Shown: positions 8,865 through 47,435, counted from the first letter of the stretch. The stretch: 62,000 nt of DNA from Patescibacteria group bacterium (GCA_035269015.1 DATFJU010000027.1:1-62000); one strand, 5' to 3'. The notes: generated by a model from the sequence alone, not told the origin. Made by a program: numbers and translations.

Positions 8865-8896
8865 ATTATTAATTAAATTTCACTATATATAATAAT

Positions 8897-11800: not shown

Positions 11801-12823
11801 ACAATGAGAACCTTCCATAGTGGTGGTGTTGCTAGTCAAGAAGATATTACTCAAGGTTTACCACGTGTTGAAGAAATTTTTGAAAGTAGACCGCCAAAGA
11901 AAAAAGGTATTTTAGTTGAAAATTCTGGTAAAATAAAAATTGAAATGGCTAAGAAAAACATTAAAGATAAGGATGGCAAAGATATTTTAGTTGATAATCC
12001 TCAAGCTAAAGTTATTAGTTTGACATATAAAGGAACGGTTAGTGATAAATCTTATTTTAGTGAAGCTATTAATGAATATAAATTAGAGACTGGTAAAAAA
12101 GGTAAAAAGAAAATAGAACCAAAACTAAAAGTTAAAGATGGCGATAAGGTAAATAAAGGAGATGAATTATTTAGCATTGAAGGTAAGCCTGTAAATGCTA
12201 AAGTTAAAGGAGATGTCAGTATTACTAAAAAATATGTTTCTATACTTAGTGAGGCCAATAAAACAAAGGAATATGCTATACCAAGAGGAACTACTATTAT
12301 GGTAAAAGATGGTGATGAGGTAAAAAGAGGTGATCAATTAACAGAGGGAAGTTTAGATTTAAGAGAGTTATCAAGGCTTAGAAATAAACTCGAAGCTCAA
12401 AAATATATTATTAGAGAAATTCAATATGTATATTCTTCTCAAGGACAACCTTTAAATGATAAGCATATTGAAATTATTGCTAAACAAATGTTCTCTAGAC
12501 ATGTAATTACTGAATCTGGCGACACTAATTTATTACCAGGAGAAGTTATTGAAGAAAATGTATTAATGCAGGCTAACAAAGATGTTAAAAAGCCAGCTAA
12601 GTCAGAAAGACTTCTACTTGGTATTACCAAGTCATCATTAAGTACTGATAGTTTCTTATCCGCTGCCTCATTCCAAGAAACTCCAAGAGTTCTAATTGAA
12701 GCTGCTATTAATGGTAAGATAGACTACTTAGAAGGACTAAAGGAAAATGTTATTATTGGTCGCTTAATCCCTGCAGGAACAGGTTATACTGGTAAAAGAA
12801 AAAGAGATGTTTATGAGAAATAA
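8897..12823 (+). CDS. rpoC: DNA-directed RNA polymerase subunit beta prime
   Basis: Zinc-binding CACGKYKK...CDKCGVEV, catalytic NADFDGDQMAVH, and trigger-loop and bridge-helix blocks. Directly downstream of rpoB. Confidence 0.98.
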   Translation: MLNPIKTSDFDAIRLKIASPEQILDWSHGEVIRPETINYRTQKPEKDGLFCEKIFGPTKDWECACGKYKKIRYKGIVCDKCGVEVTRSVVRRERMGHISLQIPVSHIWFLRGISSKIGLILNITMQSLEKVIYFASFIITSVDEDLKTATVEQVKTEFKNKKKSIENEYQQKIKELKKSDDKKEKEVADPEALESEKEEKINDLTENFDKTIKELKDLKPLQVVSESTYQSMSLKFGHLFEAGIGAEAIRGLLEKIDMEKTIEELEADLKKAVESRKDKLIKRLRLLKSLNNNNIRPEWMIMTVLPVIPPDLRPMVALDGGRFAASDLNDLYRRVINRNNRLRQLIELNAPEVICRNEKRMLQEAADALIDNSARHAKTVTASTGQKRQLKSLADSLKGKQGRFRQNLLGKRVDYSGRSVIVVNPKLDLSECGIPKSMALELFKPFIISKLIKQEIVHNVRSASRYIEAGHEEVWDILENIVKEAYVMLNRAPTLHRLGIQAFKPVLIEGKAIQIHPLVCSAFNADFDGDQMAVHVPLTKEAMNEARNLMLSTNNLLKPATGDPIVTPNQDIIWGAYYITLEDKESAKKEDNELRVFSSQAEAKLAYDNELISLNETAIIRINGERKRTTVGRSIFNDILPEKLRYINEVVVKGKVKNIIKECLYLYGGDETVKFIDDLKNKSLKYITKSGLSWGFGDLPYYEEKDELIENAGKKVDMIQEQFDEGLLTETERFSKVIETWTQAKDEISEITQDGLKDVLPVFSMIESGARGSWAQPVQILGMKGLVTSPSGSIIELPVKGNFKKGFSVLEYFISTHGVRKGLSDIALRTANAGYLTRRLVDVAQDIIVSTDDCGDDVGIKYTQEESEKIGIDVKKRIIGRYLAQDLKDDKGKVIFKKGELMDEEHMKKLEGKNIQEVVIRSVLSCKVPKGVCTKCYGYDLSYNKIVKKGATVGIIAAQSIGEPGTQLTMRTFHSGGVASQEDITQGLPRVEEIFESRPPKKKGILVENSGKIKIEMAKKNIKDKDGKDILVDNPQAKVISLTYKGTVSDKSYFSEAINEYKLETGKKGKKKIEPKLKVKDGDKVNKGDELFSIEGKPVNAKVKGDVSITKKYVSILSEANKTKEYAIPRGTTIMVKDGDEVKRGDQLTEGSLDLRELSRLRNKLEAQKYIIREIQYVYSSQGQPLNDKHIEIIAKQMFSRHVITESGDTNLLPGEVIEENVLMQANKDVKKPAKSERLLLGITKSSLSTDSFLSAASFQETPRVLIEAAINGKIDYLEGLKENVIIGRLIPAGTGYTGKRKRDVYEK

Positions 12824-12855
12824 AATAAATTAAAGCGAATAGATAAGAAAATATA

Positions 12856-12886
12856 CAAAGAGACCTTCAATTTGAAGGTCTCTTTG
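12856..12886. terminator. Bidirectional intrinsic terminator between rpoC and the convergent toxin gene
   Basis: Near-perfect hairpin CAAAGAGACCTTCAA / TTGAAGGTCTCTTTG. T-rich on the + side and A-rich on the other. Confidence 0.8.
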
Positions 12887-12905
12887 TATTTGAATGATTA
12901 GTTGT

Positions 12906-13178
12906 TTAAAGATATTTATATATATCATGCTTACCAATAGAAATAAATAAGATATCTCCATTTTTCATCCTTTCAAATATTATACGATAGTTGCTAGTAA
13001 TAGAGATAGACCAAATACCTTTAAATTTTCCATGAAGCTCATGCAAACGCAAAGAAGGGTGTAAAGGGTTGTCTTTAAATATTTCTTCTTTTTTTATAGC
13101 TAAATCAAGAATATTTTTTGATAGTAATTTTAAGTCTTTAACAAATCTTTTAGAGTAGTGAATTTCTTTTATTATCAT
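12906..13178 (-). CDS. Type II toxin, RelE/ParE superfamily (RelE/StbE-like mRNA interferase)
   Basis: 90 aa. The pattern LHELHGKFKGIWSISITSNYRIIF...ILFISIGKHDIYK fits the RelE/StbE consensus. The start overlaps the upstream antitoxin stop by ATGA. Confidence 0.8.
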   Translation of the reverse strand: MIIKEIHYSKRFVKDLKLLSKNILDLAIKKEEIFKDNPLHPSLRLHELHGKFKGIWSISITSNYRIIFERMKNGDILFISIGKHDIYKYL

Positions 13179-13402
13179 ATAAGATCAGCTATTGAATTAG
13201 CTTTTATAGTATTTCCTGTTTTATATTCTTGATGAGCAGTTTTAACTGATTTTAAAAGTTCAGCATCAGAGATAAGATTGGAATCTAAGTCTATTAAGTA
13301 TTTTATATATTCAGAAACTGATTTAAAGCCACGTTTTTTTGATAGTTTTTTTATCTTTTCACTGGACTGTTTTGGTAGTGATAAACTTAACACTTGGCGC
13401 AT
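13175..13402 (-). CDS. Type II antitoxin, ribbon-helix-helix (CopG/RelB-like)
   Basis: 75 aa. N-terminal beta-strand plus helices (VLSLSLPKQSSEKIKKLSKKRGFKSVSEYIKYLI) typical of RHH. 4-nt overlap with the toxin gene. Confidence 0.7.
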   Translation of the reverse strand: MRQVLSLSLPKQSSEKIKKLSKKRGFKSVSEYIKYLIDLDSNLISDAELLKSVKTAHQEYKTGNTIKANSIADLI

Positions 13403-13429
13403 ATGTTTATGCTTAATTATTATAATATA

Positions 13430-13458
13430 ATTGTATTACAAATGTATTACAATGTCAA
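13430..13458 (-). promoter_or_regulatory. Toxin-antitoxin promoter with palindromic operator repeats in the spacer
   Basis: The minus strand reads TTGACA-17 nt-TACAAT, about 27 nt before the antitoxin ATG. The spacer holds two adjacent copies of the palindrome TTGTA-N-TACAA (13431..13441 exact, 13442..13452 with one mismatch). Confidence 0.7.
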
Positions 13459-13641
13459 TAATAAGACTTTGTAAATTAAATATATACTTCTAAAAATTTC
13501 TATAGAACCAATAGTCATTATTATAGCAATCGTATTTATAGAAAAAATAAAATATTTATTTATTTGCATAATTGTTCTAAACTTCATACAATTAAAATAA
13601 TGATAGAAAAGTAAATTTTAATAAATTTAATCATTTTCTGT

Positions 13642-13851
13642 ATGATGAATTTTAACCTTGTTCCTTTTGTATGGCTTATTATGGTTCTCTTTTGGGTGCT
13701 TATAATAATTGGAATTGTGGCTTTGATAAAATGGGCGCTAGATCAAACTAGGGTTGAAAATAGAAATACATCTGCTTTAGATATTTTAAAGGAGAGATAT
13801 GCAAAAGGTGAAATTAACAAAGAAGAATTTGAGAACAAAAAAAAGACTTGA
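13642..13851 (+). CDS. Small membrane protein with a C-terminal SHOCT domain
   Basis: 69 aa. One TM helix, then [20 protein letters not shown], which matches the SHOCT short C-terminal motif. Ends in TGA. Confidence 0.7.
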
Positions 13852-13945
13852 GTTAAAAACTAATAATTTTAGCTTTAAACCAAAATTGATTTTTTCACTT
13901 TCTTTCTTTAATTCTTTTTGTGTTTAGAAAAAGTATGTTAAAAAG

Positions 13946-13968
13946 TCGTTCCTATGGGAATGATTTTT
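13946..13968 (+). terminator. Candidate intrinsic terminator after the SHOCT gene
   Basis: 7-bp stem TCGTTCC/GGAATGA (one G-U pair), loop TATG, followed by TTTTT. Confidence 0.45.
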
Positions 13969-14005
13969 ATTTTATCTTTTGTCTTTTCTGATATATAATA
14001 ATAGT

Positions 14006-16692: not shown

Positions 16693-18768
16693 ATGAAATT
16701 AGACAAATTATTTAAACCAAAAAGTATTGCAATAATTGGGGCCTCCAATAATAAAGAGAAGTTGGGTTGGCAGATTTTAAGTAACCTGAAAAACTCAGGT
16801 TACAAAGGAAAAATATATCCAATTAATTTGAGTGCTAAGACTATATTAAAAGAAAAAGTGTACACCACTATATTAGACATAAAAGAAAAATTGGACTTAG
16901 TTTTAATTGTAATTCCAGCTAAGTTTGTTGAAGAAGAAATTAAAAAATGTGCTCAAAAAGGAGTTAAAAATGTTATTATCATCAGTGCTGGTTTTAAAGA
17001 AAGTGGTACAGAAGGTAGGGATCGGGAAAGTAGAATTATACAAATAGCTAAGGAGAACAACATTAATATATTAGGCCCTAATTGTTTAGGTATTATTAAT
17101 AATAACGCTAATTTAAATTTAAGCTTCAGTGCTTTATTTGTTGATAAAAAAAAGAAAAGACGTAAAAGTAAAATAGCTGGTGTTTCACAGTCTGGAGCGA
17201 TTGGTAGTGCAATGCTGGATTGGTTTGATAATAAGGGTTTAGAATTGGATGTATTTGTTAGTTTAGGCAACCAAGCAGTAATAAAGGAAAGTCAGATACT
17301 TGATTACTTAGCTAATGATAAAGATATAGATTTAGTAGTACTTTATTTAGAGGAAATTAGTTCAGGCCCAGATATTATGGCTAGTTTAAGTAAATTAACT
17401 CAGAAAAAACCTTGTTTAGTAATTAAATCTGGTCGTAGTCAGGTAAGCTCTAAAATGGCACTTAGTCATACTGGTAGTTTAGCTGGTTCTTGGCAAGCTT
17501 CTAAAACTGTTTTAGAAAGAGGTGGAGCTGTGTTATTAGATAATTTAGATCAGCTTTTTAGCGTTTTAAGTTTATGGCCAGTTCTTTTAAATAAAGATTA
17601 TCAAAAGATATTAAAAGACCTTAGACCTTATTTTGTTTCTAATGCCGGTGGCGCTTTAGTGTTAGCTTTAGATACATTGAATCAGTATAATTTTAAATTA
17701 GGAGCTTTATCTACAAACTCTAAATTAAAAAATCCTTTAGATATTTTAGGAGATGCAGGTGCGGATAAATACAAGCAAACTTTAAAAAGTTTTTTAAATG
17801 AAAAAGAAACAAAACTTTTAATTTGTATTTTAACCCCCCAAAGTTCTAGTGAGGTAGAAGCTACTGCTAAAGTAATAGTATCATTAAATAAAAAGTATAA
17901 AGACAAGATAGTGTTGCCAGTATTTATTGGCGGAAGCAGTTTAAAAAGCGCTAGAGAGATATTCTCTAATAATAGTTTACCAAATTACGAAAGTTTAGAA
18001 CCACTTATTTTTGCACTTAGTAAATTATCTAATTACTTTAGCAGTAAAGATAAAATAAGACTATATAAAAAAAACAAAATTAACACAGATATAAAAAAGA
18101 AAGAAATTACAGAAGTAAAAGATAATAATTTAAAAGATAAACATACAAATAAAGTTTTGGATTATTTAGAATCTTTTAAACTTTTAAATAATTATGACAT
18201 TAATACAGTTAAAACTAAGAAATTAGATAATAATATAGATAAGATTAAAGCTTCTGATTTCCCTCTAGTGTTGAAAGCAGTTGGTCCTAACTTTAATCAT
18301 AAAAGTGATAAGCAAGCTATTATAACTAATATAGAAAACAAAGCTCAGCTGAATACTTATAGTACAAAATTAACAAAACAATTAAAGCAAAATGATTACT
18401 TAGTTTATCAGCCCCAAATAAAAGATTCTTTAGAGTTAATACTTGGTTTTAAAAGAGAAAAGAATTTAGGAGCACTGATTATGATAGGTTGGGGAGGGGT
18501 GAATGCTGAAGTCATTAAAGATTTAGCTTACAGTACTGATGATTTAAGTTTTTCTGAGGCTAAAAATATTGTTAAAAAATTAAAAATATACCAATTAATT
18601 TCTGGCTACAGAGGTAAAGGATCTTATGATTTAAATTCTTTAGCTAAAACACTACAATATGTAGCTAAGTTAGCTAAGGAAAATCCAAACATTAAAGAAT
18701 TAGATATTAATCCTTTATTTGTTCAAGAAAACCAAGTTAAAGCTGGAGATGTAAGGGTAATTACTTGA
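16693..18768 (+). CDS. acd: ADP-forming acetyl-CoA synthetase (acetate--CoA ligase, fused alpha/beta)
   Basis: N-terminal CoA-binding fold (KPKSIAIIGASNN), a succinyl-CoA-synthetase-like ligase domain (SQSGA, HTGSLAG) and a C-terminal ATP-grasp. Ends in TGA, 1 nt before murJ. Confidence 0.85.
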   Translation: MKLDKLFKPKSIAIIGASNNKEKLGWQILSNLKNSGYKGKIYPINLSAKTILKEKVYTTILDIKEKLDLVLIVIPAKFVEEEIKKCAQKGVKNVIIISAGFKESGTEGRDRESRIIQIAKENNINILGPNCLGIINNNANLNLSFSALFVDKKKKRRKSKIAGVSQSGAIGSAMLDWFDNKGLELDVFVSLGNQAVIKESQILDYLANDKDIDLVVLYLEEISSGPDIMASLSKLTQKKPCLVIKSGRSQVSSKMALSHTGSLAGSWQASKTVLERGGAVLLDNLDQLFSVLSLWPVLLNKDYQKILKDLRPYFVSNAGGALVLALDTLNQYNFKLGALSTNSKLKNPLDILGDAGADKYKQTLKSFLNEKETKLLICILTPQSSSEVEATAKVIVSLNKKYKDKIVLPVFIGGSSLKSAREIFSNNSLPNYESLEPLIFALSKLSNYFSSKDKIRLYKKNKINTDIKKKEITEVKDNNLKDKHTNKVLDYLESFKLLNNYDINTVKTKKLDNNIDKIKASDFPLVLKAVGPNFNHKSDKQAIITNIENKAQLNTYSTKLTKQLKQNDYLVYQPQIKDSLELILGFKREKNLGALIMIGWGGVNAEVIKDLAYSTDDLSFSEAKNIVKKLKIYQLISGYRGKGSYDLNSLAKTLQYVAKLAKENPNIKELDINPLFVQENQVKAGDVRVIT

Positions 18769-24611: not shown

Positions 24612-24644
24612 AAAAAAATAGACTTTTATTAAGTCTATTTTTTA
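24612..24644. terminator. Bidirectional intrinsic terminator between rnhA and porB
   Basis: Hairpin AAAAAATAGACTT-TTATT-AAGTCTATTTTTT, flanked by an A-run and a T-run. Confidence 0.7.
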
Positions 24645-24680: not shown

Positions 24681-25571
24681 CTATAAACCATACTCTTTAA
24701 TATTTTTATCTGCTAAACCTTGTATCTCTTTTATACTTTCTTTTCCTTTAGCGCTTTTGAAAAGATGAGAAAATCTTCCTTGTAGTTTTAGATACTCATC
24801 TACTTTAACTTTTTTCTCAGGTACTTTTGATTTAGATGTTAGCTTTCCATTAGTATATTCAAGTAAAGGGTATAGTCCTGTTTTAGCTGCTAGTTGTCCC
24901 ACTAACATAGCTTTATTTGATTTTATTTTCCAACCAGGAATACAAGGTGCTTGTATTTGAATATAGCTTGGACCCTTAGTGTTAAGAGCTGTTTTGACTT
25001 TCTTGGTTATATCTTGAGGATAGCCAGCAGTGCTTTGAGTTACATAAGGTAAGCCGTGAGCCAAGGCAATTGCTATCATATCTTTTTTCTTTTGTTTTGA
25101 TCCTAGGCTGTCAGTTCCGGCAGGAGTGGTGGTAGTGCTAGAGCTTAAAGGAGTGGCACCTGAAGCTTGAATACCAGTGTTAGAATATGCTTCAGTGTCA
25201 TAGACAATATAGACTATATCTTCAAATCTTTCCCACATACCACTTATTAATCCAAAACCTATATCAAAAGTTCCACCATCACCAGCTTGGACGATAACTT
25301 TAGTGTGTTTGTTTTTCTTTTTATTTAAACTAGCTTTAATACCTGAAGCTACAGCTGAAGGATTCTCAAACAGTGAATGAATCCAAGGTACACCCCAAGA
25401 ACTTTCAGGGTAGGGAGTAGTAGTTACCTCCAGGCAACCGGTAGCATTAGCAATAATTACATCTTTAGTCATAGCTCTAGTAGCTGCCATAGCTGCTATA
25501 AGTTGACCACAACCGGCACAGGCGCGGTGACCTGAGTTTAATATTCCCTTGTTATTTTCTATTTTATTCAT
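24681..25571 (-). CDS. porB: 2-oxoacid (pyruvate):ferredoxin oxidoreductase, beta (TPP-binding) subunit
   Basis: CAGCG cluster-ligand region and the TPP motif QAGDGGTFDIG...N. Last gene of the por operon. Confidence 0.9.
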   Translation of the reverse strand: MNKIENNKGILNSGHRACAGCGQLIAAMAATRAMTKDVIIANATGCLEVTTTPYPESSWGVPWIHSLFENPSAVASGIKASLNKKKNKHTKVIVQAGDGGTFDIGFGLISGMWERFEDIVYIVYDTEAYSNTGIQASGATPLSSSTTTTPAGTDSLGSKQKKKDMIAIALAHGLPYVTQSTAGYPQDITKKVKTALNTKGPSYIQIQAPCIPGWKIKSNKAMLVGQLAAKTGLYPLLEYTNGKLTSKSKVPEKKVKVDEYLKLQGRFSHLFKSAKGKESIKEIQGLADKNIKEYGL

Positions 25572-25585
25572 ATTTCTTTATTTTA

Positions 25586-26644
25586 TTATGGGTTATAATA
25601 ACAACATTCTAAACCATCTTTACATTTTCTTCCGCTAAAAACTCTCCAATCTGTATCCCAATCTCCATTACATGAGCCATTTACTACTTGAGGTGGATCA
25701 CTAAAACATATTCCACCATCATTACCACAAGGCTCACCTTCGTTTCCTTCTCCATAATAAGGTGTTTCATCATAACATCTACAATCACCAAGACTACTAG
25801 AACATTTATCACCGTCATCAGCTCCTTCACAGTTTATTGTTTCGCAATTATAATCAGCTACTTGTGAGCATTCCATATCTTGAAAATCAGAGTTTATTGC
25901 ATATATAGTTTCATTATAAGTTTTACTACAGTTGGCTATATTTGCATCTATACAGTTAGTACTTTCTACATAAGTAGTTATTGTACCATATGATCTAGGT
26001 TCTTCTGTTATTATTATACAACATCCGTCTTTTAAACACTGTGTGCCATCAGAGGTGGCGCTATAACCAGTTTTAAATTCAGCGTTATCAATTTTGTCAC
26101 AATCTTTATTAGTCGTATTTTTAGCTTCATTATCATTAATTTCGCAACAACCAAATTGCAGAACTCCAATATATTCAGTTTCTATTGGTTTAAAACTTAG
26201 AAGAGCGGGGCTAACTATTTGTAGTAATGTATAAGTACCAAGTAGTAAGACAAGGCCAATTATAGAACTGGTAATCATAGACTTAGCTGTACCAATTTTT
26301 TCAGAAGCTCCGGCAGAAGTTAACCAAATTATTCCACCAGCGACTATCATCATTAGAGCTAAAAAGGCTGCAATACCAATTCCATAGTTATATATTGCTT
26401 TAATATATCTAGGCAATAAGGTGCTATACATGGTTGTAACCTCTCTGCCAGCCTCATTTTCAGAAACTTTACTTGTGCCAACTGTGGTGGTGCCACCATC
26501 AAACTCACTACCAGGAATAGGTACTTGTGGAGTAAATTCTAAACTTTCTGGTGATTCATTTTGAGCTAAGGTAGTAGGTATAAAAACTTGGAAACTAAAG
26601 ATAATAATTACAAGCAGAAGTATTGTCTTAATTGTCTTAGTCAT
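25586..26644 (-). CDS. Exported protein: CPR-type T4SS-pilin-like (VirB2/TrbC-like) TM hairpin fused to a 20-cysteine C-terminal domain
   Basis: Signal peptide MTKTIKTILLLVIIIFSFQVFIPTTLAQ. The pilin-like core IAAFLALMMIVAGGIIWLTSAGASEKIGTAKSMITSSIIGLVLLL matches the T4SS_pilin (PF18895-type) pattern from memory. The C-terminal ~190 aa hold 20 Cys (hand count). Lies between porA (4-nt gap) and porB (14-nt gap). Confidence 0.6.
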   Translation of the reverse strand: MTKTIKTILLLVIIIFSFQVFIPTTLAQNESPESLEFTPQVPIPGSEFDGGTTTVGTSKVSENEAGREVTTMYSTLLPRYIKAIYNYGIGIAAFLALMMIVAGGIIWLTSAGASEKIGTAKSMITSSIIGLVLLLGTYTLLQIVSPALLSFKPIETEYIGVLQFGCCEINDNEAKNTTNKDCDKIDNAEFKTGYSATSDGTQCLKDGCCIIITEEPRSYGTITTYVESTNCIDANIANCSKTYNETIYAINSDFQDMECSQVADYNCETINCEGADDGDKCSSSLGDCRCYDETPYYGEGNEGEPCGNDGGICFSDPPQVVNGSCNGDWDTDWRVFSGRKCKDGLECCYYNP

Positions 26645-26648
26645 AATT

Positions 26649-27827
26649 TTAAGTTATATATAGTGATTGACTACTTTTGTTTTTTTTCTTTGTTATCTTA
26701 ATTGCTTTTTTAATTATTTCTTTAGTTACATCTCTGCCCCCTAGACCGGTAACAAAACTATGAACATTTTTCTTGTCAGTGCTTAGTGCTTGATTTATCT
26801 CTTGAGCTAAAGGGGAAACAGCTCCTAAGCTGGTAGCTTTTTCAATTACTGCAATATTAGGATTATCTTTTAAAGCTTTTTTCACCGCCTCATACGGAAA
26901 AGGTCTAAAGCTTTTAATCTTTAATATTGCTACTGAGTCCATTTCATCACTAATATCTTTCATAGTTCCTACCATGGAACCCATAGCTACAATTACAGTT
27001 TTAGCTTTTTTAGGACCATAGTATTCAAGTAGGGCGCTGTTATCGCTGGTAGCAATATCTTTACCAACAGTTTTTTGTAGTAATTTAAATTCTTTCTCTA
27101 TTTCATTGGTGCTATTTTTTAAAGCTAAGTGGAGATCTTGTCTAATTTCTTGATAATATTGAGGTCTAGCAAAAGAGCCCATAGTTACCGGTTCTTTAGG
27201 GTTTAAATATTCATGGCTAGCGGGTTTATATTTAGGTAAAAATTTCTTGATAGCTGATTTATTAGGAATAATCACTGGTTCATATGAATGAGTGAGCACA
27301 AAACCATCCATATTTACCATAGCAGGAAGTTTTAACTTCTCAGCTACTTTATAGGCTAATAAATGTTGAACTATAGCTTCTTGGTGATTTTCTGCAAAAA
27401 ATATTAACCAACCAGCATCACGAACAGTCATAGCATCTTGGTGATCATTCCAAATGGTAATAGGAGAAGATACTCCTCGGTTAGCAACAGTCATAACTAC
27501 CGGTAATCTTAAACCGGCAATATTAAATACTACTTCCGTCATTAGAAGCAGTCCTTGGGAGCTGGTAGCGCTATAAGCTCTAGAACCAGTAGCAGAAGCT
27601 CCTAAAATAATGGAAGCGGCGGCAAATTCACTTTCAGCTCTAACATACTCGTAATCAGCTTGTCCGTCAGCTTTAAACTTGGCTAGGTCCTCCACAATAT
27701 GAGTTTGGGGAGTAATAGGGTAGGCAGAGATTACTTCAGGTTCTATGTTTTTAATAGTTAGAGCCACTGCTCTAGATCCTTCTAAAATGTTTTTATTTTT
27801 TAAGTTGTTTTGTTTTTTATTTTTCAT
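26649..27827 (-). CDS. porA: 2-oxoacid (pyruvate):ferredoxin oxidoreductase, alpha subunit
   Basis: 392 aa, typical PorA/VorA N-terminal pyrimidine-binding domain (AYPITPQT...). Overlaps porD by 11 nt. Confidence 0.9.
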   Translation of the reverse strand: MKNKKQNNLKNKNILEGSRAVALTIKNIEPEVISAYPITPQTHIVEDLAKFKADGQADYEYVRAESEFAAASIILGASATGSRAYSATSSQGLLLMTEVVFNIAGLRLPVVMTVANRGVSSPITIWNDHQDAMTVRDAGWLIFFAENHQEAIVQHLLAYKVAEKLKLPAMVNMDGFVLTHSYEPVIIPNKSAIKKFLPKYKPASHEYLNPKEPVTMGSFARPQYYQEIRQDLHLALKNSTNEIEKEFKLLQKTVGKDIATSDNSALLEYYGPKKAKTVIVAMGSMVGTMKDISDEMDSVAILKIKSFRPFPYEAVKKALKDNPNIAVIEKATSLGAVSPLAQEINQALSTDKKNVHSFVTGLGGRDVTKEIIKKAIKITKKKNKSSQSLYIT

Positions 27828-28095
27828 CTCTTTTCATTGTTATAGCATTAACTGGGCACTTATTAGCACAGGCACCACAGCCTTTGCAATAGTCATAATT
27901 TACTTTAGATTTTAAACCATTTTTTGTTTTTTGCATATCCATAGCATTATCTGGGCAGGCAAGCACACATCTTTTACAACCAATACATTTACTTTTATCA
28001 ATAACTGGTTTAAAGGTACGCCAAGAACCAGTGTGGTTTTCTTTAGTACTGCCAGCTTTGGCATTTATATCTATATTTTTAGTTTTATTTTTCAT
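27817..28095 (-). CDS. porD: 2-oxoacid:ferredoxin oxidoreductase, delta subunit (2x[4Fe-4S] ferredoxin)
   Basis: Two CxxCxxCxxxCP motifs: CIGCKRCVLACP and CKGCGACANKCP. Confidence 0.9.
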   Translation of the reverse strand: MKNKTKNIDINAKAGSTKENHTGSWRTFKPVIDKSKCIGCKRCVLACPDNAMDMQKTKNGLKSKVNYDYCKGCGACANKCPVNAITMKRDEK

Positions 28096-28651
28096 AAGCT
28101 TTAGTTATAGCTTTTATATTTTTGTTTATTATTTCCTTGTTTTTTTCTTGAAATTTTTCTTTAATTGCTTCTTTGGTAGATTCTAGAGATATTAGTTCAA
28201 AGTTTTTAGCTAAGAGTCCTAAAATAACAGTGTTGGCTAAGTTTTTGCCTAGTATTTTTAAAGCTATAGAAGTAGCATCTAAGCAGTGAATATTTTCTTC
28301 TTTACTTTTAAAATTCCATTTTTCTGCTAATATCTTTTTAATTTCTTTAGCGCTTAAAGTAGTGTTAACTATTATCATAGTATTAATATTGCAACCACTT
28401 ACCAAATTAGTAGTGTTAAGCAGGGAGGCATCTAAAATAATTAAGATATCAGGACTGTATACCTGTTCTCTAGTGCGTATAAATTTATCATCTATTCTAG
28501 TATAGGCTTCAATAGGAGCTCCTGTTCTTTCTACTCCAAAAGAAGGGAAGGCTTGGGAGTAGTATTTATTTTTAAAAGCGCTAATGGCTATAAGCTCAGA
28601 AGCAGTAACTACACCTTGCCCACCACGACCATGTATTCTAATTTTTTGCAT
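28085..28651 (-). CDS. porG: 2-oxoacid:ferredoxin oxidoreductase, gamma subunit
   Basis: 188 aa. N-terminal IRIHGRGGQGVVTASELIA signature. Overlaps porD by 11 nt. Confidence 0.9.
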   Translation of the reverse strand: MQKIRIHGRGGQGVVTASELIAISAFKNKYYSQAFPSFGVERTGAPIEAYTRIDDKFIRTREQVYSPDILIILDASLLNTTNLVSGCNINTMIIVNTTLSAKEIKKILAEKWNFKSKEENIHCLDATSIALKILGKNLANTVILGLLAKNFELISLESTKEAIKEKFQEKNKEIINKNIKAITKAYEK

Positions 28652-28652
28652 A

Positions 28653-29351
28653 TTAATTATTTTCTAATAAATTATTTATATATAATTCAAATTGATCTTT
28701 TTCTATGTGTCCAGATGCTTTATATTCATTAAACATATAAGTTGGAGTTCTATCTATATTCATAGTATCAGCATCTTTCATATCTTGTCTAATAGCACCC
28801 AAATATCGCTCCTCTGCCATGCAGTTAATAAATTGTAATCTATTAGCTCCTATTTGTTCAGCTATATCAGGTAATTCTTCTAATTCAAATTCACCTTGTC
28901 TTTCAAATAATTTATCAATCATATTCCAAAATTTACCCTGTTCACCAGCGCAGCGACCTGCTAAGGATAAAGCGATAGAATCTTCACCTAAGATAGGTAA
29001 GTCTCTGTATATTATTTTCACTTTATTGGAGTAACTCTTTATTATCTCTTCTGTTATTACATTAAAAGCCTTTTTACAGTAAGGACAGTTTAAATCAGAA
29101 AACATTACGATTGTTAATTCAGGATTCTTAGTCCCTAGGTAATAATTAGAAGTGCCTTCTCTTAATTCTTGGGGATTAAAGACTTCACCTGTTTCTGGAT
29201 CAATCTGAAGTGCACCACTTTCTATGGCTTTTTTAGTGTTAAAAAAATACATGGCTGAGGAGATGATTGTTATAATTACTAATAAAGAAAAAATAATTAG
29301 TAATATGCCCCACCACTTTTGATACCATTTTTTATGATAAAATGAAGACAT
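28653..29351 (-). CDS. Membrane-anchored DsbA-like thiol:disulfide oxidoreductase (thioredoxin fold, CPYC)
   Basis: N-terminal TM anchor, active site LNCPYCKK, DsbA-family helical insert, cis-Pro region DRTPTYMF. Stop lies 1 nt before the porG start. Confidence 0.85.
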   Translation of the reverse strand: MSSFYHKKWYQKWWGILLIIFSLLVIITIISSAMYFFNTKKAIESGALQIDPETGEVFNPQELREGTSNYYLGTKNPELTIVMFSDLNCPYCKKAFNVITEEIIKSYSNKVKIIYRDLPILGEDSIALSLAGRCAGEQGKFWNMIDKLFERQGEFELEELPDIAEQIGANRLQFINCMAEERYLGAIRQDMKDADTMNIDRTPTYMFNEYKASGHIEKDQFELYINNLLENN

Positions 29352-29386: not shown

Positions 29387-29415
29387 TTTATTAATGTTAT
29401 TATAACATTAATAAA
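29387..29415. repeat. 29-bp perfect palindrome in the divergent dsbA-por / xth control region
   Basis: TTTATTAATGTTAT-T-ATAACATTAATAAA. The 14-bp arms were checked base by base. Confidence 0.9.
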
Positions 29416-29437
29416 ATAATTAGTAAAAAATATACAC

Positions 29438-34804: not shown

Positions 34805-35467
34805 ATGAAAGTTAACAGAAATTTTGATAATTCAGATAAGAATAAGCCAAAAACCAAATTAATAATTTTTGGCATTTTTTCTATAGCTATTCTTGTTTTT
34901 TGGGTAATGCAAATGCAAGCTAATATTAAAGGACCTTTTCAACTAGGAGATGAATACAGTACTTTAAGTAAGGATAGCTCTAATAATATAGGAACTTGCA
35001 CAGGTTCTGATTGTTTAAGTGACACAGAGCTTAGAGATAAAGACACTGATGGAGATGGCTTAAGTGATTGGGAGGAGATAAATATATATGGCACTTCTGC
35101 TTATTTAGCTGATAGTGATAGTGATGGTATTTCTGATTATAATGAAATTCAACAAGGAACTGATCCTAATTGTGCTGAAGGTAGTGACTGTAGTTATAAT
35201 GATTTTAATAATAATGGTTTAGAAGGTGATTTAGGTTCTACCGGTGATGGGAATCTAGATTTTTCAGGTGATAATATTTCTGTTCCAGAAGATGAAGAAA
35301 AATTAAAAGAAGCTTTATCTGGATCTATTAATCTTGAGGATTTAAAAACTTTACTTTTAGAAAGTGGAGTAGATGAAAAAACAGTTAATTCATTTTCTGA
35401 CGAAGAGTTAAATAAAATCTATAAAGATACTCTATCAGGCATGTCACAGGATTTTAATAATAATTAA
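34805..35467 (+). CDS. TM-anchored acidic protein with thrombospondin-type-3-like Ca-binding repeats
   Basis: N-terminal anchor LIIFGIFSIAILVFWVM. Repeats DKDTDGDGLSDWEE and DSDSDGISDYNE (DxDxDG). Ends 11 nt before the giant ORF. Confidence 0.7.
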   Translation: MKVNRNFDNSDKNKPKTKLIIFGIFSIAILVFWVMQMQANIKGPFQLGDEYSTLSKDSSNNIGTCTGSDCLSDTELRDKDTDGDGLSDWEEINIYGTSAYLADSDSDGISDYNEIQQGTDPNCAEGSDCSYNDFNNNGLEGDLGSTGDGNLDFSGDNISVPEDEEKLKEALSGSINLEDLKTLLLESGVDEKTVNSFSDEELNKIYKDTLSGMSQDFNNN

Positions 35468-35478
35468 TAAAATATAAT

Positions 35479-38400
35479 ATGTTTAAGCACAAAAAAAAGA
35501 CTAAAAAACTTATAATTTTATTTTTTGTGCTATTTTTTGTGTTATCAGGGGTTTTAAATTTTCAGACTGAAACTAAAGCACAGGTTGTTGTTGTGGAGTC
35601 AGTACCTGAAAAAACAACTAACATATTAGACAAAATTAAATCTATATTAAAGAAATTATGGGATAACGCTGGGCAGGAGCTGTTTAATACTGTTGCAACC
35701 AATACTTTAAATAGGTTAGCTTATGACGCCGCTGATGTTATTCTTAGTGGAGATAGCGGGCAAAAACCAATGTTTATTGACAAGAATATGGGTGAATATT
35801 TTGTAGATATTGGTGATGCTGCTGCTGGTGATTTTCTAGATGGCTTGAATGATTTAGGTGACATGAATTTATGTGAACCTAATTTAGCTATTAAAGCTAG
35901 CATAGGTTTAGGTTTAGTAGATACAAAAAGACCAGCAGAGCCAAGTTGTAAGGCCAGTGATATGGTTAAATCTTGGGAGGATGAGTTTCAAAAGTTTAAA
36001 GATATGAGTGAGATGAGCAATAAAGAACTTTTAGGGAAAGTGGTAGGCTCATTTAATCCTACCTCTAGTGATTTAAGTGTTACAGCTTCTTTATTCCAAG
36101 GCATGGAGGAGAAAGAGGCATCTGAAATTAAAAAAGCAGAACAGGAACAAGATGCTACAGATGGTAAATTTATAGATTCTACAAGTCCAGGAGGTCAAAT
36201 AACAAAAGTTCCTGGTACAGATCAAAGAAGTTTTGAAAATGCTCAAAAGAAAATGACTGATAATGTTGATGCTTGTGATGGTGATAATCTTTTTGCTTGT
36301 GCAGGTAATGTCTTTATTAATCACTTAGCTTTAAATGCCTTTAATAGAGCTTTAGATTATTCTTTTTCTCCTGATGAACAAGATCCTTTAGCTGATTCTG
36401 ATCCTTATGATTTATCTGATCCTGACAGTGATCCATCGGTTGTTTATCAAAAAGATCAGCCAACCTTAAGACGAATTCTAGAACCTAATTTTAATGAACG
36501 TGTAGATTATAATATTTTATCTAAATTAAGTGTTTGCCCTCAAGCTAATATTGGTGGACAAGATTTTGTACCTGCGCCAAATAATTGTGTAATTGATGAT
36601 CAGTTTAGTTTAGCTATTACAGAGCAAAAAACAGTTGGTGAGGCCTTAAACGAAGGTTATTTGCATAAAGATTGGCGCTTTAAAGGTCTAAATGAAAACG
36701 TTGCTTATAATGAAGCTTATTCTTATCGTTCAATTTTAATATTAAAAAAATATCGTATAGTACCAGCTGGTTGGGAGGAAGCTATTTATAGGGTTAGTGA
36801 TAGTAAAAATCAGTCAGCTACTTTACAAGATTTAGTATCTTGTTTTAGTCCTGATGATGAGTACAATACTTTTAGTCAAGGTTTTAAACCTAAGGGATGG
36901 TGTAGAGGCTTAATTGATCCTAAGTGGGTATTAAAACTACCTTCACATTATTGTGCTAAAGAGGGTTATGGTCATATAATTCAGAAAGAAGTAACATATG
37001 GTCAAGGTGTAGAGGATAAAGACGACTATATTGCTAGTGATATTTTTGTAACAAGAAGTGATGAATATTGTGCTGATGAGCAAAGTTGTATTAAAGAAAA
37101 TAGTAATGGTACTTGTGAGGTTTATGGTTATTGTAATGAAGAAAAAAGAACTTGGAATTTTAACCAAGATTCTTGTGATCCGGTATTTAATACTTGTGAA
37201 ACTTTTAAAAATGTAGATAACGGGAAATCAATTTCATATTTAAAAAACACTTTAGATTATAGTGGCTGTACTTCTGATAGTGCTGGTTGTAGTTTTTATT
37301 CATATAATGGTCCTTATAATGTTGATAATGATAAAGTTACTTGGAAATCATATAATGATATTTATTTAAATAATAATGCAGAATCTTGTGCTGAGTCAGA
37401 TGAGGGTTGTAGTCAAATGATAAGAGTTCAGGCAGCTTATGGTCATAATTTTATTAAAAATGGTGGTTTTGAAGAAATAGATTTTGATTTTAATTCTTGG
37501 ACTAGTTGTTCAAGTCCTGCTTGTTTAGTAGATGATTCATATAGCGGTGATCAAGCTTTAGAGGTTAATAATGAAAGTTTATCTGTAGAAGTGGGACCAC
37601 AAACATATAATATTTCTGGTAAAACATATACTTTTTCATTTTACGCTAAAGATTGTACATCAGGAGATGATTTTGGTTTCGTTGGTGGTAAGTATAATGT
37701 TTTAGATGATAGTGAGGAATGGCAATATTATAGATTGTCTAATACATATTTCGCCAATCAAACTTTAGGTAATACAGTTGGTTTAGAAATTAATAGCAAC
37801 ACTTGTTTAATTGATGATGTAAAATTAGAACTTGGTAATATAGGTACAAAATATAGTGATTATGGTGATAACAATGTTATTTATCAAAAAATGCTTCCAG
37901 AGTATTTATGGAGTGATTGTTATGAAAATCCAGATTCGGGAAACCTAGACTTTAGCTTGAAAGAAGATGCTCCTGATGTTTGTAGTGATAGTTTTAGCCG
38001 TCTTTGCAATGCTGATGAAGCTGGATGTAATATTTATACTAATGTAAAAGATAGAGAAGATCAGGTGGTAGCTCAAGTGTCTACTCAAGATTATTGTCCT
38101 GGAGAATGTAATAACTATGACTTATATATTGGTGCAAAAGATTATTTTAACTCTACTCAAGGAGCTAAGTTTATCCCGGAAACAGCCAATACTTGTTCAG
38201 CAGCGGATATAGGTTGTATAGAATTTACTAACCTTGATGTTTTAAATTCAGGAGGAGAAGCAAAAGAATATTATACTTCTTTAAAACAATGTATTAAACC
38301 TAGTGAAAATGATTGTACTGCTTTCTATGTCTGGCAAGGATCTAATGATGGGTCTTATCAATTAGAATCATATACTTTAGAGAAAGCTGAATATACTAAT

Positions 38401-41400
38401 GAGCCAGCGGTAGTGGAAAACGATACAAGTCTTTGTAATGAAGATATATATAATTTACCTATTACTGATCCTAATTATAATTCTGACTGTTATCAATTTT
38501 ATAATACTGAAGGTGAAGTTTCATATCATTTATATTCAAAAACAATAACTTGTTCTGAAGATTGTCACCCTTATAGAATGTCCAAGAGAAACATAGATAG
38601 TAATATTAACACTGCTAGTGTCTGTAATAGTTTAGGGGATTCAAGTTATTGGGAAAACAACACCAATAGTTGTTATTACTGTGAAAATGGTGGTACCTGG
38701 TCTCAGGAGTATGATTCTTGTGTTTATCAGGCTATTCCTGGGCAAGGTGAGTCTTGTTCTCAGGAAGCTAATGGATGTAGAGAGTATAATGGTAATTCAG
38801 GTAATAATATTAGAATTGTTAAAACTTTTGATTTTGCTAATTCACTCCAAGGCTGGGAAGGAAGATGTGGCGATGCTGCTGAGCTTAGTACAGTTGCTTT
38901 AGGTAGAAATGACCAATCTTTATGGTATAAGCAAGGAGGAGGTAGTGAATCTTGTTCTCAGGAAGATAATAATGAGCCTAGGGCAGAAGTTGTGTTAGGA
39001 TCATATAATTTAAATAGTGGTAGCGCCTATAGTTTAAAGTTTATGGCTAAAGTAGATACTGCTACAGATCTTAATATATATTTTGAAAATGATAATAGTC
39101 AAAAATCTTATTTTGAAATCACAGGTGCAGAGGATAGTAGCTCTGTTACTTTGCAAGGTGATAGTGCGTGGCATCAATATGAATTAAGTTTAAGTTCTCT
39201 TGATCATATATTAAGCGGGAATGAGGCTTTAGTGGTAGAATCTGATACTTCATTTTATTTAGACAATATAATACTTAGAGAAATTGTTGATAAGTATTAT
39301 CTTATAGAAGATTCTTGGGAAACACCGAATTCTTGTTATTATGATACCTTAAATGAGTATAAAGGTGTTGATTATAATCTTGGCTGTAGTGAGTATAGTA
39401 ATAATTTAGATCAATTTGTATTCTTGCGTTCCTTTAGTAGTTTATGTCAAGAAAGTGCTATTGGTTGTCAGTTAATGGTTGATACGTATGACACTAAAGA
39501 TTATAAGAAGAGTGTATACAATGATGATAATGATAATGGTGCTTGTGATGAAAATGAAAATGATTGTGTAAGCATCAATGCTGATGAATATGTATTTGCT
39601 GTATATAACGCAAATAATACTTGTTCATCTGATTTCAAATCTTGTCAGCGTTTGGGTAAGTCTGTTAATTATGGTGATCAAGTTTTATTTAGTGATGTTT
39701 ATTTAAAGAATGATCCTGATAAATACAGTACTATTTTATGTTCAGAAGACACAGCAAATTGTGAGGCCTGGGTTTCTGGCGCCGGAGAGAGGTTTTATTT
39801 TAAAAATCCTAGTGATAAGATATGTGAATGGAAAGAAGGTGATGAGGGTGAGTGGAATTGGTACAAAAAAAGTATAAATAAGTGTGATGAAAATAGTAAC
39901 GGAATAGCAGAAGAATATGAAAATGTTTGTGTAAGCTCCGATGATTGTCTTATCCCAAGCCAACTAATGGATGGTGAAAATAGTTGTTTATCAGATGATG
40001 ATTGTCCTGATAGTAATTCTTGTAATGATGGTTATTGCGTGTATGAATGTGTAGAACAAGAAGAAAATTTCCCTTGTCCTGTTGATAGTAATAAAACTAT
40101 TGGTTTTGGTGGCGGTGGTAATCAGGTTAATCAACCTACAGATGATTGGGTAGGTATTTGTGAAAAAAATGCCTCTACTTGTAGTGAATATATTGATCCA
40201 GTTAGTGATTATGCCATAAATAGCTTATCTAATCCTAGATTTTTAGATTTAAATGAGGATGGATCTTATGGAGATGAATGGAATATTGAAAATAACAATG
40301 CTTATCAATCCGTTTATTTAGTAGCTAATAGAGCCTATGTCTTTGCAGTAAATAATTTAAATGTTGATTCTGTTGAGCCTTATATAGAATGTGATTCTAA
40401 AATTAATGTATTAGATAGTGATAATGAATTTTTTGAAGCTAATGAAAATAGAATTAATCTAGATTCAAGTATAGATAATCGTTATAGAATTATAGTTAGC
40501 TCTACAGATCAATTCTGTAGGTTACATAGAGACACTGATGAATACTTAGAGAATGAACCTGAATTGATATTTAAAGAAGCTATTATTGATTATCAATTAT
40601 CTAAGAATTTAGATACAGATTCTTGTAATGGCAAGGTTGATATTGAAAAAGGTTGTGTATTGTTTAATGAAAGAAGTCAAAATACATCTGCGGGGTTAAG
40701 CTCATTAATTTATAATGCTTATGATAGCTACATTAGTGACAGCAAATCTCCTCAAAGTGTAAACAATGGAGAGAACTCTTTAAATGCTAACACTTTAATT
40801 AAAGTAGATCCTAATAGAGTTTGTAATACTTGGTTAGCTTGTAGGACAAAGGTGGTTGATGAAAATGGTGACATCACTTGTTATGATGTTGGTGATTGTG
40901 ATGCTTTAGATAAAGATGGTGAGTGTGCTAATTTTTTACCAAACTCTAATGCAATAAATACTTTTGATACAGTTAGAGATAAAAATTCCAGTGGTTATAG
41001 TGTTTTAAATAAATACAATGTTAGTAATATGAGTGAAAGTGGTTCTACTCCTCAATCTAGCTCCTTTGATTTTGAGGGAGGGGACGCGTCTAATGTTTGG
41101 TCTGATGATGCTGGCGATGGAAATATTGCTATTATTGTTGATGAACCTGCACCTTCAGATTCAGACAAGCAATTTAATGCCTCCTATCCTGCAGAGGGTA
41201 AAGCATTTTTAAAGAGTAAAGCCGATCGTGAGGTAAAATCACCTATAATAGATATTCAAAGAAATCAACAATATTATATAAATTATTTATTAAATACTAA
41301 TAATTTAACTTTTGGCACAGAAGCTGAAGTAAGTATAATAGGAGTTATTAGTGAAAATGAAGATGGAGTAGGGGAAGAGGGAGATGTAATTGTTTCATGG

Positions 41401-43617: not shown

Positions 43618-44037
43618 ATGAAAAACTTAGTTTTCTTATTAGTAATAGTAGCTTCTAGCTTAATTTTGTTTTCTTGTGAAAAGGATGAACCAAATCCTGA
43701 ACCAGATTATACCTATATTTGTTACCGGATAATAGTTCATGCAAACTTAGAGGTGTATAATGCTTGTAATTATACTGTAAGTGATATATATCCAGCTGAC
43801 GAGTATACGCAGGATGATCCAATAATTTGGAATGATGATTTTGCAGGTTTTGAAGATATCTTTATTTTAGAAAAAGATGTTTACTTGGGACAAACCATGA
43901 CAGTTTCCTTTTATGTAGAGGATCTCGGTGGTTCTGCTTATTATGAAGATGAAAGACAAATACTTATTGAAGCTCCAGAAGGGTATGGCGGATTAGGTGA
44001 ATACATAGAAATTGTCTTTACAGTTCCTGATCCTTAA
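43618..44037 (+). CDS. Small acidic lipoprotein
   Basis: 139 aa. Signal peptide ending in the lipobox-like LILFSC. Acidic mature part. Has its own promoter, SD and terminator. Confidence 0.75.
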   Translation: MKNLVFLLVIVASSLILFSCEKDEPNPEPDYTYICYRIIVHANLEVYNACNYTVSDIYPADEYTQDDPIIWNDDFAGFEDIFILEKDVYLGQTMTVSFYVEDLGGSAYYEDERQILIEAPEGYGGLGEYIEIVFTVPDP

Positions 44038-44047
44038 AAGCTAAAAT

Positions 44048-44077
44048 AAAAGTCTGTGTTAAACAGGCTTTTTTTCT
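44048..44077 (+). terminator. Intrinsic terminator after the lipoprotein gene
   Basis: AAAGTCTGT-GTTAA-ACAGGCTTT (one G-U pair), followed by TTTTTT. Confidence 0.7.
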
Positions 44078-44130
44078 TTGCTTAAAAGTTTGAAATATAG
44101 TAAAATGTAAGTGAGGTAATAAATAAAAAA

Positions 44131-44838: not shown

Positions 44839-44841
44839 AAT

Positions 44842-47433: not shown

Positions 47434-47435
47434 TT

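Follow-up and report, generated by a model that had tools for sequence, protein, structure and literature searches.

What are two envelope genes doing in the operon of a cytoplasmic iron-sulfur enzyme of central metabolism? CPR bacteria are mostly uncultured, depend on surface structures for life on their hosts and have very few regulators, and it is in the small genome of one of them, a Patescibacteria (CPR) bacterium, that this question arises. The window, which is the whole analysed stretch of 62,000 nt (GCA_035269015.1 DATFJU010000027.1:1-62000), contains on its minus strand open reading frames in the order dsbA-porG-porD-porA-porB, with a gene for an exported protein inserted between the last two (Table 1). 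The genes are separated by 1 nt (dsbA/porG), 4 nt (porA/insert) and 14 nt (insert/porB), and both porG/porD and porD/porA overlap by 11 nt. An earlier note on this DNA had described such an operon-tight order; its order and spacing proved exact to the base, all six ORF coordinates were reproduced, and family matches agreed with the identities that it had given (PorG, PorD, PorA, PorB, DsbA and a pilin-like insert). At the two places where a misassembly had been considered, 25571..25586 and 26644..26649, the arrangement is sound, since contigs from independent runs cross both the porA/insert and the insert/porB junctions: X2 spans 25049-28111 without a break, X3 contributes the pieces 25215-26216 and 26408-26717, and the two pieces of X4 are 25215-25693 and 26439-26865.

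Table 1. Features of the por locus, in the direction of the minus strand (positions are those of the window)
Feature	Position	Strand	Description
Candidate operon promoter	29399..29427	-	TTTACT, 17-nt spacer, TG-extended TATAAT; ~48 nt 5' of dsbA ATG
DsbA/BdbD/MdbA-type thiol:disulfide oxidoreductase	28653..29351	-	232 aa; Thioredoxin_4 96.9 bits, DSBA 56 bits
porG (gamma subunit)	28085..28651	-	188 aa; PF01558 132 bits; TIGR02175 191 bits vs cutoff 81
porD (delta subunit, 2x[4Fe-4S] ferredoxin)	27817..28095	-	92 aa; TIGR02179 102.6 bits vs cutoff 60
porA (alpha subunit)	26649..27827	-	392 aa; POR_N 234 bits, PFOR_II 77 bits
VirB2-like T4SS_pilin family gene between porA and porB	25586..26644	-	352 aa; PF18895; positional homologues in related genomes
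Signal peptide of pilin	26564..26644	-	aa 1-27 (...TTLAQ); hydrophobic segment aa 8-26, conserved in family
Pilin core	26189..26419	-	aa 76-152; two membrane helices, short conserved loop (IWLTSxG...A); core HMM 174 bits
Hypervariable disulfide-rich pilin ectodomain	25589..26188	-	aa 153-352, 20 Cys, ~200 residues
porB (beta subunit, TPP-binding)	24681..25571	-	296 aa; TPP_enzyme_C 65.5 bits; PorB NF008819 E = 9e-101
Bidirectional intrinsic terminator, porB/rnhA	24612..24644	.	A-run, 10-bp stem-loop, U-run; -14.8 kcal/mol, z = -2.7

As judged from the translations, the gene set for a four-subunit pyruvate/2-oxoacid:ferredoxin oxidoreductase (POR) is intact. PorD carries two [4Fe-4S] CxxCxxCxxxCP motifs, CIGCKRCVLACP and CKGCGACANKCP, and PorB contains the TPP motif GDG...N (GDGGTFD...YSNTG) together with four cluster cysteines (CAGC/C/C). 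PorA and PorB score below the NCBIfam equivalog cutoffs, so that the substrate could be pyruvate or another 2-oxoacid. Not far away, at 16693-18768, lies a gene for an ADP-forming acetyl-CoA synthetase. The locus shares with the canonical porG/C-porD-porA-porB operons of anaerobic bacteria and archaea the same four genes in the usual order, with translationally coupled overlaps. However, dsbA leads the operon here and a pilin gene of 1059 nt splits alpha from beta, so that the gamma-delta-alpha-beta order is kept but is no longer contiguous. Neither gene was found in about 70 non-CPR por loci, all of which were plain, uninterrupted porG(D)AB with a porA-porB spacing of 43-190 nt, in line with the statement of the earlier note that such operons normally run without foreign genes.

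The candidate promoter upstream of dsbA was the top minus-strand match of the region (10/12 with TG). Its -35 element, spacer and TGTTATAAT are kept in two relatives (L001 and L003), and a third one (L011) retains the extended -10 (TGATATAAT). At the other end, the fold of the previously noted bidirectional terminator was borne out between porB and the convergent rnhA. A minus-strand terminator scan revealed nothing convincing inside the operon, where the 4- and 14-nt gaps leave no room for a hairpin, and the lack of internal hairpins already remarked upon was thereby confirmed. A single dsbA-to-porB transcript would be consistent with the spacing, the conserved upstream promoter and the downstream terminator. 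In roughly half of the relatives, toxin-antitoxin or other selfish genes take up 0.5-1.8 kb between the pilin gene and porB, which indicates that tight coupling is not required across the clade.

The inserted gene itself matches PF18895 (T4SS_pilin) weakly, with 21.7 bits that lie under the gathering score of 26.6. Nevertheless, 22 of the 23 aligned homologues are assigned to this family with E-values of 1e-3 or less (best 9e-10), and none to another one; a weak match to the pilin-like conjugal transfer family NF045849 was also obtained. Hydropathy segments were found at residues 8-26, 88-106 and 122-145, and the AF2 model contains helices at 76-109 and 114-144 with a pLDDT of 81-87. The protein thus combines a Sec signal peptide with a pair of hydrophobic helices and a short connecting loop, as is the rule for VirB2-like proteins. 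Invariant residues of the core are Y80, A83, Y85, Y87, G104, W107, T109, G112, A120 and P146. For the ectodomain, neither a fold nor a sequence match was found in the PDB; its conserved cysteines occupy positions 166/167, 182, 203, 272 and 290. Across the family, the cysteine number is even in 68 of 87 pilins, and one pilin (that of L051) has none.

VirB2-like pilins and pilin arrays are common in Patescibacteria and frequently lie distant from virB4 (PMC12102498). The por-embedded pilin resembles those patescibacterial VirB2-like (PF18895/PF04956) pilins in its Pfam assignment, taken at family level, in its signal peptide and two-helix hairpin, and in not standing beside virB4, but it is found within a central-metabolism operon, a case that this survey does not mention. 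Compared with classical VirB2 it is far longer, with a 200-residue cysteine-rich ectodomain.

Recognisable type IV secretion genes are present in the same window, namely a PrgI/VirB3-like gene (51562-52014) and a VirB4-like gene (52721-54613; 350.6 bits against a cutoff of 325). They lie 22-25 kb from the operon rather than at the distance of about 18 kb that had been proposed, and a block at 43.6-48.4 kb gave no family match. A search with the core HMM detected no second pilin-core ORF within the window, and it is plausible, on the evidence of these gene assignments, that the pilin belongs with the VirB3/VirB4 system.

The first gene of the operon encodes a DsbA-like protein with a CPYC active site, an R-T-P cis-Pro loop and a predicted N-terminal membrane anchor, and its PDB relatives include ScsC, DsbA-like proteins and BdbD. 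Its N-terminus is Lys-rich and is followed by a single hydrophobic segment, WWGILLIIFSLLVIITIISSAMYFF; the positive-inside rule, from which alone the orientation is taken, would place the catalytic domain outside the membrane. MdbA-like oxidoreductases are enriched in CPR, where pilin folding has been proposed as their role (PMC6744442). The predicted anchor, the thioredoxin fold, the CxxC (CPYC) motif and the cis-Pro loop are shared with the MdbA/BdbD pilin-folding enzymes of Gram-positives and with this CPR family, and so is the position of the oxidoreductase gene in cis with a gene for a cysteine-rich exported pilin (PMC6744442). The pilin may be a substrate of this DsbA. Unlike MdbA/BdbD systems, however, no re-oxidising partner (DsbB/BdbC/VKOR) was recognised among the ORFs scanned in the window, and the gene is tied to the por genes even in pilin-free relatives. 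The latter indicates that the two envelope genes did not come in as a pair, and together with the cysteine-free pilin it implies that DsbA is not there for the pilin alone. A second DsbA-like gene adjoins virB4 in the window and could be the one related to the secretion system.

How old is the arrangement? The earlier note had suggested a comparison of por loci across genomes, and the insert turned out to be conserved. Both porA and porB are present in 49 genomes of related species, and in 46 of these pilin-core ORFs lie between the two genes (one in 33 genomes, two in 13). Two sister genomes (L035 and L046) carry a pilin of the porA-side type just 3' of porB, and in L090 a run of N interrupts the por locus, with the pilin beyond this gap. 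The same order was observed in metagenome contigs with pilin identity down to 31%, and neither an inversion (L007) nor other neighbouring genes (L112) have disturbed it. In 13 genomes, another group of pilin orthologues is located directly 3' of porB, and the pilin copy number ranges from 1 to 3. The composite operon is that of Falkowbacteria-like Patescibacteria (CPR): the layout is common to about 55 related species, comprising all sampled relatives of the clade, which makes it ancient.

Over 55 genomes, the mean pairwise identity is 0.62 for PorA, 0.49 for the pilin core and 0.19 for the ectodomain. Divergence of the core runs parallel to that of PorA (Spearman rho 0.55); for the ectodomain no such correlation was seen (rho 0.07). 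Second pilin copies have a core identity of 0.72 within the same genome versus 0.44 between genomes, and they are therefore lineage-specific duplicates. Moreover, the GC, GC3 and codon usage (CAI) of the insert agree with those of the host, which speaks against a recent arrival. Buchananbacteria-like CPR have dsbA-porGDAB without the pilin. The composite operon is thus derived from plain porGDAB, and the linkage of dsbA to por is wider than that of the pilin.

The explanation towards which we lean, with moderate confidence and from comparative sequence data, is that of a composite operon of long standing, whose housekeeping catabolic transcript would carry the envelope genes, and POR would have no mechanistic part in pilin function. 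One promoter 5' of dsbA would drive a single transcript ending at the hairpin past porB, and the por operon would serve as a strongly and constitutively expressed carrier in a genome poor in promoters and regulators. DsbA, facing outwards from the membrane, would probably form the approximately ten disulfides of the ectodomain of a pilin that may be a surface, host-contact subunit. The VirB3/VirB4 system, without a recognisable pilin of its own, would probably use the por-embedded one, which may have diversified by tandem duplication and ectodomain turnover. The porA-porB junction would be a tolerated landing site, in relatives for toxin-antitoxin genes as well.

An unlikely reading, though one to be weighed, is a selected coupling of metabolism and surface, in which the por transcript retains pilin and folding catalyst so that the host-contact organelle is made at a fixed ratio to the main ATP-yielding pathway (POR and ADP-forming acetyl-CoA synthetase). 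It would account for the persistence of the linkage through inversion, the move to after porB and new flanking genes, for the lack of pilin loss in a large clade and for the extra ortholog group right after porB. A parallel is offered by an independent pilus system of CPR, the Pam operon of Ca. Mycosynbacter amalyticus and its relatives, in which surface-filament genes are likewise conserved beside energy-metabolism genes, those of ATP synthase (bioRxiv 10.64898/2026.03.03.709456). Nevertheless, the Pam pilin is of an unrelated type (Ig-like, with donor-strand exchange), and its genes have metabolic neighbours in other CPR classes rather than being inserted within an enzyme operon (bioRxiv 10.64898/2026.03.03.709456). 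The neighbourhood recJ-rnhA / por / exoIII-leuS is syntenic as a whole throughout the clade, so that the pilin position may be kept by inertia and not by selection; the selfish genes that separate pilin from porB in about half of the relatives fit poorly with a tuned stoichiometry, and Buchananbacteria-like CPR do without a pilin at por. Rather improbable is the proposal that the por-embedded gene is the otherwise missing VirB2 of the secretion system, with host-contact filament and folding catalyst hard-wired by selection into the transcript of the only pyruvate-oxidising, ATP-yielding enzyme, the surface apparatus of an episymbiont being thereby tied to energy metabolism, and with the variable ectodomain as the determinant of host specificity.

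It is also quite improbable that the genes are neighbours but separate transcription units, in which internal promoters in the 3' ends of porA and of the pilin gene would drive the pilin and porB, respectively. Weak promoter-like hexamers do occur just 5' of the pilin ATG (26673-26646) and of the porB ATG (25613-25585), both 9/12, and the -10-like motifs directly upstream of the starts, TATATAAC for the pilin and CATAAT for porB, are kept in close relatives. Furthermore, porB almost certainly needs a promoter of its own in relatives with large gaps. However, these motifs lie on C-terminal and stop codons that are themselves conserved, and their own conservation is accounted for just as well in this way; the promoter-like matches of the region are at background (29 against a shuffled expectation of 23.9 +/- 5.3), and no terminator-like hairpin separates genes that are only 4 and 14 nt apart.

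That the pilin-like protein is a POR accessory, which would tether the enzyme to the membrane or conduct electrons from ferredoxin to DsbA or out of the cell, is very improbable, its long-conserved position between alpha and beta being the sole point in its favour. According to hydropathy, alignment and the AF2 model, the cytoplasmic part is only a loop of about 10 residues, and the membrane helices contain no Cys or His. On general biochemical grounds, the redox potential of DsbA would not allow it to reduce ferredoxin. In addition, the gene codes for a hypervariable ectodomain, has no fixed copy number, may stand after porB and is absent from related CPR and from all of the approximately 70 non-CPR POR operons fetched; nothing in the results points to a role of the pilin in POR enzyme chemistry. 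Finally, a recent insertion, which the earlier note had entertained, horizontal transfer or an assembly artefact has next to no probability and was rejected, no support having been found for any of them against junctions spanned by independent contigs, host-like composition, an order common to dozens of species (46/49 and 2/49 positions) and a core that co-diverges with PorA.

The locus provides a concrete and testable case in which envelope and host-contact genes may ride on housekeeping transcripts across a whole lineage. For annotation, a por operon with a pilin insert is not to be taken as degenerate. The por-linked pilin is also easily found, a fast-evolving marker beside a slow one that could be of use in strain and host-range studies. 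Between genes for the subunits of a tight dimer, the operon of a heteromeric enzyme can accommodate not only a foreign gene but also toxin-antitoxin modules, and porA and porB have remained split over a divergence that reaches about 50% identity in PorA.

The porA-porB gap of the relatives has a varied content of toxin-antitoxin and selfish genes. A 72-aa/DUF2283 pair was found in 24 genomes, HigBA, RelE, 23S_rRNA_IVP and PDDEXK_3 genes were also observed, and the gap of L120 contains an AbrB-like/RelE-like pair.

The DNA between porA and porB of the por operon codes for a 352-aa predicted exported protein, and the arrangement described by the earlier note was confirmed. The map of six minus-strand ORFs proved exact when read from the sequence: dsbA and porG are separated by 1 nt, porG/porD and porD/porA overlap by 11 nt each, and the insert lies 4 nt from porA and 14 nt from porB. 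Pfam and NCBIfam recovered the four subunits of the pyruvate/2-oxoacid:ferredoxin oxidoreductase (POR) that it had named, and the leading gene is indeed of the DsbA kind, its relatives with solved structures being ScsC, DsbA-like proteins and BdbD. Both insert junctions are spanned by contigs from independent public DNA runs, so that the misassembly considered in that note can be set aside and the arrangement is no assembly artefact. A contig of one such run, X3, joins 24747 to 28083 and would skip 3335 bases; one of its sides matches 21 nt only, and a spurious unitig join is the probable explanation.

Features of the por operon and of other parts of the window
Feature	Position	Strand	Basis or remark
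dsbA-like gene	28653-29351	-	ORF; Thioredoxin_4/DSBA, CPYC site
porG	28085-28651	-	ORF; Pfam and NCBIfam POR subunit
porD	27817-28095	-	ORF; Pfam and NCBIfam POR subunit
porA	26649-27827	-	ORF; Pfam and NCBIfam POR subunit
insert, 352 aa	25586-26644	-	ORF between porA and porB
porB	24681-25571	-	ORF; Pfam and NCBIfam POR subunit
terminator hairpin	24612-24644		A-run, stem-loop, U-run; between porB and convergent rnhA; folding
candidate promoter	29427-29399	-	TTTACT, 17 nt, TG-extended TATAAT; upstream of dsbA
ADP-forming acetyl-CoA synthetase	16693-18768	+	CoA_binding, Succ_CoA_lig, ATP-grasp_5; 6 kb from por operon
PrgI/VirB3-like gene	51562-52014	+	T4SS marker
VirB4-like ATPase	52721-54613	+	NF045971, 350.6 bits vs cutoff 325
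second DsbA-like gene	55205-56014	+	CSYC motif; 23% identity to the operon's DsbA

The top promoter match of the minus strand is the site 5' of dsbA. Its -35 element, spacer and TGTTATAAT are kept in the related loci L001 and L003, and L011 retains the extended -10 as TGATATAAT. In the same scan no signal within the operon exceeded the shuffled background, and Rfam and tRNA searches returned no family and no tRNA there. The terminator that the earlier note placed after porB was also found and folds better than shuffled sequences (z = -2.7). None of the RNA runs searched for the window's pilin region and for the porA-porB region of a relative contained either. The favoured reading of these sequence signals is a composite operon, in which one read-through from the candidate dsbA promoter to the hairpin 3' of porB would cover all six genes.

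The insert starts with a signal peptide, whose hydrophobic segment spans residues 8-26, continues with a poorly conserved stretch carrying a conserved F-x-P-Q-V-x-I-P, and then forms two hydrophobic helices (~76-109 and ~114-144) on either side of a short, strongly conserved loop, IWLTSxG...A. The remaining 200 residues contain 20 cysteines. Alone, it scores 21.7 bits against T4SS_pilin PF18895, under the gathering score of 26.6. Nevertheless, this family was matched by 22 of 23 aligned homologues at E <= 1e-3 and no other family was matched, and for this reason the insert is filed, at family level, as a putative VirB2-like pilin. The AF2 model of the pilin (pLDDT 74, pTM 0.35) matched no PDB fold better than E = 0.2, the top matches being efflux-adaptor alpha-hairpins and TNF-like folds at noise level. 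Searching the PDB sequences with a profile gave no relative either, and the Cys-rich ectodomain is thus without assignable fold. Of 87 related pilins, 68 have an even number of cysteines, as disulfide pairing predicts. An extreme ectodomain expansion was observed in locus L045, where a third pilin-core ORF after porA (8125-10947) reaches 940 aa with 114 cysteines.

The window has a GC content of ~31%, and the record titles of its nearest relatives, which are metagenome-assembled genomes, read Patescibacteria, Candidatus Falkowbacteria or Parcubacteria. Many related records (L013-L015, L019, L020 and others) bear the title 'uncultured Gammaproteobacteria bacterium'; both the genes and their surroundings are those of Patescibacteria, and the titles look like mislabels. 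Metagenome homologues of the insert occupy the same position (for example L001, L003-L006, L009 and L011), L001 having two tandem pilins there. A PorA scan of species-representative genomes gave 80 loci with PorA identities of 51-89%. Among the 49 loci holding both por genes, one pilin-core ORF lies between them in 33 and two in 13, so that the comparison proposed by the earlier note finds the insert conserved in 46/49, the other three being explained. In the sister genomes L035 and L046, porA adjoins porB and a pilin of the kind usually adjoining porA is found 3' of porB. An apparent in-frame porA-pilin fusion ORF in L090 (5575-5672) was rejected, since a stretch of N in the record produces it and the pilin lies beyond the gap. 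In addition, 13 genomes of one subclade carry an extra pilin directly 3' of porB, which belongs to a separate ortholog group.

In Falkowbacteria HGW-1 (L007; pilin identity 31%), an inversion parts dsbA-porG-porD from porA-pilin-porB and leaves each half intact, which implies that the POR subunits are made from two divergent units. In this record and L008, positions 1857-8048 hold dsbA-porG-porD on the minus strand and exoIII-porA-pilin-porB on the plus strand. The recJ-rnhA / por / exoIII-leuS neighbourhood is itself syntenic across the clade, so the conserved position of the pilin is no proof of selection for linkage. Tight porA-pilin-porB packing is a trait of the window's subclade, comprising the window, L013, L014, L086 and metagenome relatives.

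Elsewhere the gap is wider. In 24 related genomes (L016, L018, L020, L022, L023, L026, L030-L033, L037, L039, L040, L042, L043, L047, L054, L058, L059, L076, L082, L087, L089 and L091) the stretch between the pilin or pilins and porB always contains a 72-aa gene and a 69-aa DUF2283 gene, on the same strand, and neither was found elsewhere in those loci. Some genomes also have HigB/HigA, RelE, 23S_rRNA_IVP or PDDEXK_3 genes interspersed with these two. This variety suggests that the junction is a tolerated landing site. L120, a Buchananbacteria-like locus without pilin, holds an AbrB-like/RelE-like pair between porA and porB (6274-6751), so the junction appears to attract insertions independently of the pilin. 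Where the gap genes are present, pilin and porB are 0.5-1.8 kb apart, which argues against finely tuned coupling.

The earlier note had also offered a recent insertion, and this option fares poorly. GC, GC3 and codon-adaptation index of the window pilin, compared as it had suggested, lie within the spread of values shown by 17 other genes of the window; on this host-like composition recent horizontal transfer was rejected, and the insert is present in dozens of relatives. Across 55 genomes the mean pairwise identity is 0.62 for PorA, 0.49 for the pilin core (its two-helix membrane part), 0.27 for the pilin N-terminal part and 0.19 for the ectodomain. The core tracks PorA identity (Spearman 0.55; ectodomain 0.07). 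Second copies in the porA/porB gap are nearest to the first copy of their own genome (core identity 0.72 vs 0.44 between genomes; 1.00 in L089), and are therefore lineage-specific tandem duplicates or have been homogenised by conversion. Such a pattern is that of a gene which is old, inherited vertically, exposed at the surface and subject to diversifying pressure, not that of a recent arrival.

Outgroup loci were obtained only with PorA of the CPR (Patescibacteria) locus L112 as query; a query with L084, whose PorA diverges most within the first set, led back to the same genomes, and a large PorA protein search listed close relatives only. About 70 non-CPR loci (Zixibacteria, Omnitrophota, Desulfobacterales, Methanomicrobiales) show a plain porG(D)AB with porA and porB 43-190 nt apart and neither dsbA nor pilin, which bears out the expectation that four-subunit operons are normally uninterrupted. 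Within CPR, L121 and L146 have dsbA-porGDA-pilin-porB, L112 has porGDA-pilin-pilin-porB without dsbA and with other flanking genes, and four loci titled Buchananbacteria (L117-L119, L124) have dsbA-porGDAB without pilin. The latter rule out a joint arrival of dsbA and pilin. A PorA+PorB neighbour-joining tree places the CPR sequences in a single group, and the pilin is present in all members of a large Falkowbacteria-like clade; parsimony favours a single old insertion and two losses over three or four gains, on a tree whose basal order is not robust.

As for function, DsbA, anchored outside the membrane, would probably oxidise the pilin cysteines; an MdbA-like family is enriched in CPR and a pilin-oxidising role has been proposed (PMC6744442). 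The pilin itself may be a host-contact or T4SS subunit. Patescibacteria pilins of this kind are widespread; arrays of them are common, and so is a location apart from virB4 (PMC12102498). In the 62-kb window, VirB4 block included, the pilin-core profile found no second such ORF. The linkage of dsbA to por even where the pilin is absent limits the composite-operon reading. POR itself is probably uninvolved: the pilin's sole cytoplasmic part is a loop of ~10 residues, neither Cys nor His occurs in its helices, and both the ectodomain and the number of copies vary freely. For reasons of topology, hypervariability and copy-number variation, a role of the pilin as POR tether or electron conduit was rejected. 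In full-text literature searches no publication turned up that connects por genes of CPR with pilins or DsbA. The Pam pilus operon, whose place next to ATP synthase genes is conserved (bioRxiv 10.64898/2026.03.03.709456), comes closest as a parallel. Each component is of a known kind, and as far as can be told the conserved por-pilin architecture is undescribed.

For substrate-level ATP synthesis POR would be expected to work with the ADP-forming acetyl-CoA synthetase, whose presence in the window makes it likely that POR acts in a route from pyruvate through acetyl-CoA to acetate and ATP. Elsewhere in the window, 1.1 kb after rpoC (12823-13979) contains no ORF of at least 100 aa and no Rfam or tRNA match. 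Membrane and secreted proteins without family match occupy 43618-49806; one of them (44842-47433) is polytopic, 863 aa long and carries a long charged tail. Between this block and the VirB4 block, the opposite strand holds an rve-type integrase gene (48526-49806). Finally, 34805-43497 (plus strand) codes for a TSP3-repeat protein of 220 aa and, after it, has a 2672-aa ORF whose sole match is a weak CBM_4_9 and which probably encodes a giant surface protein.
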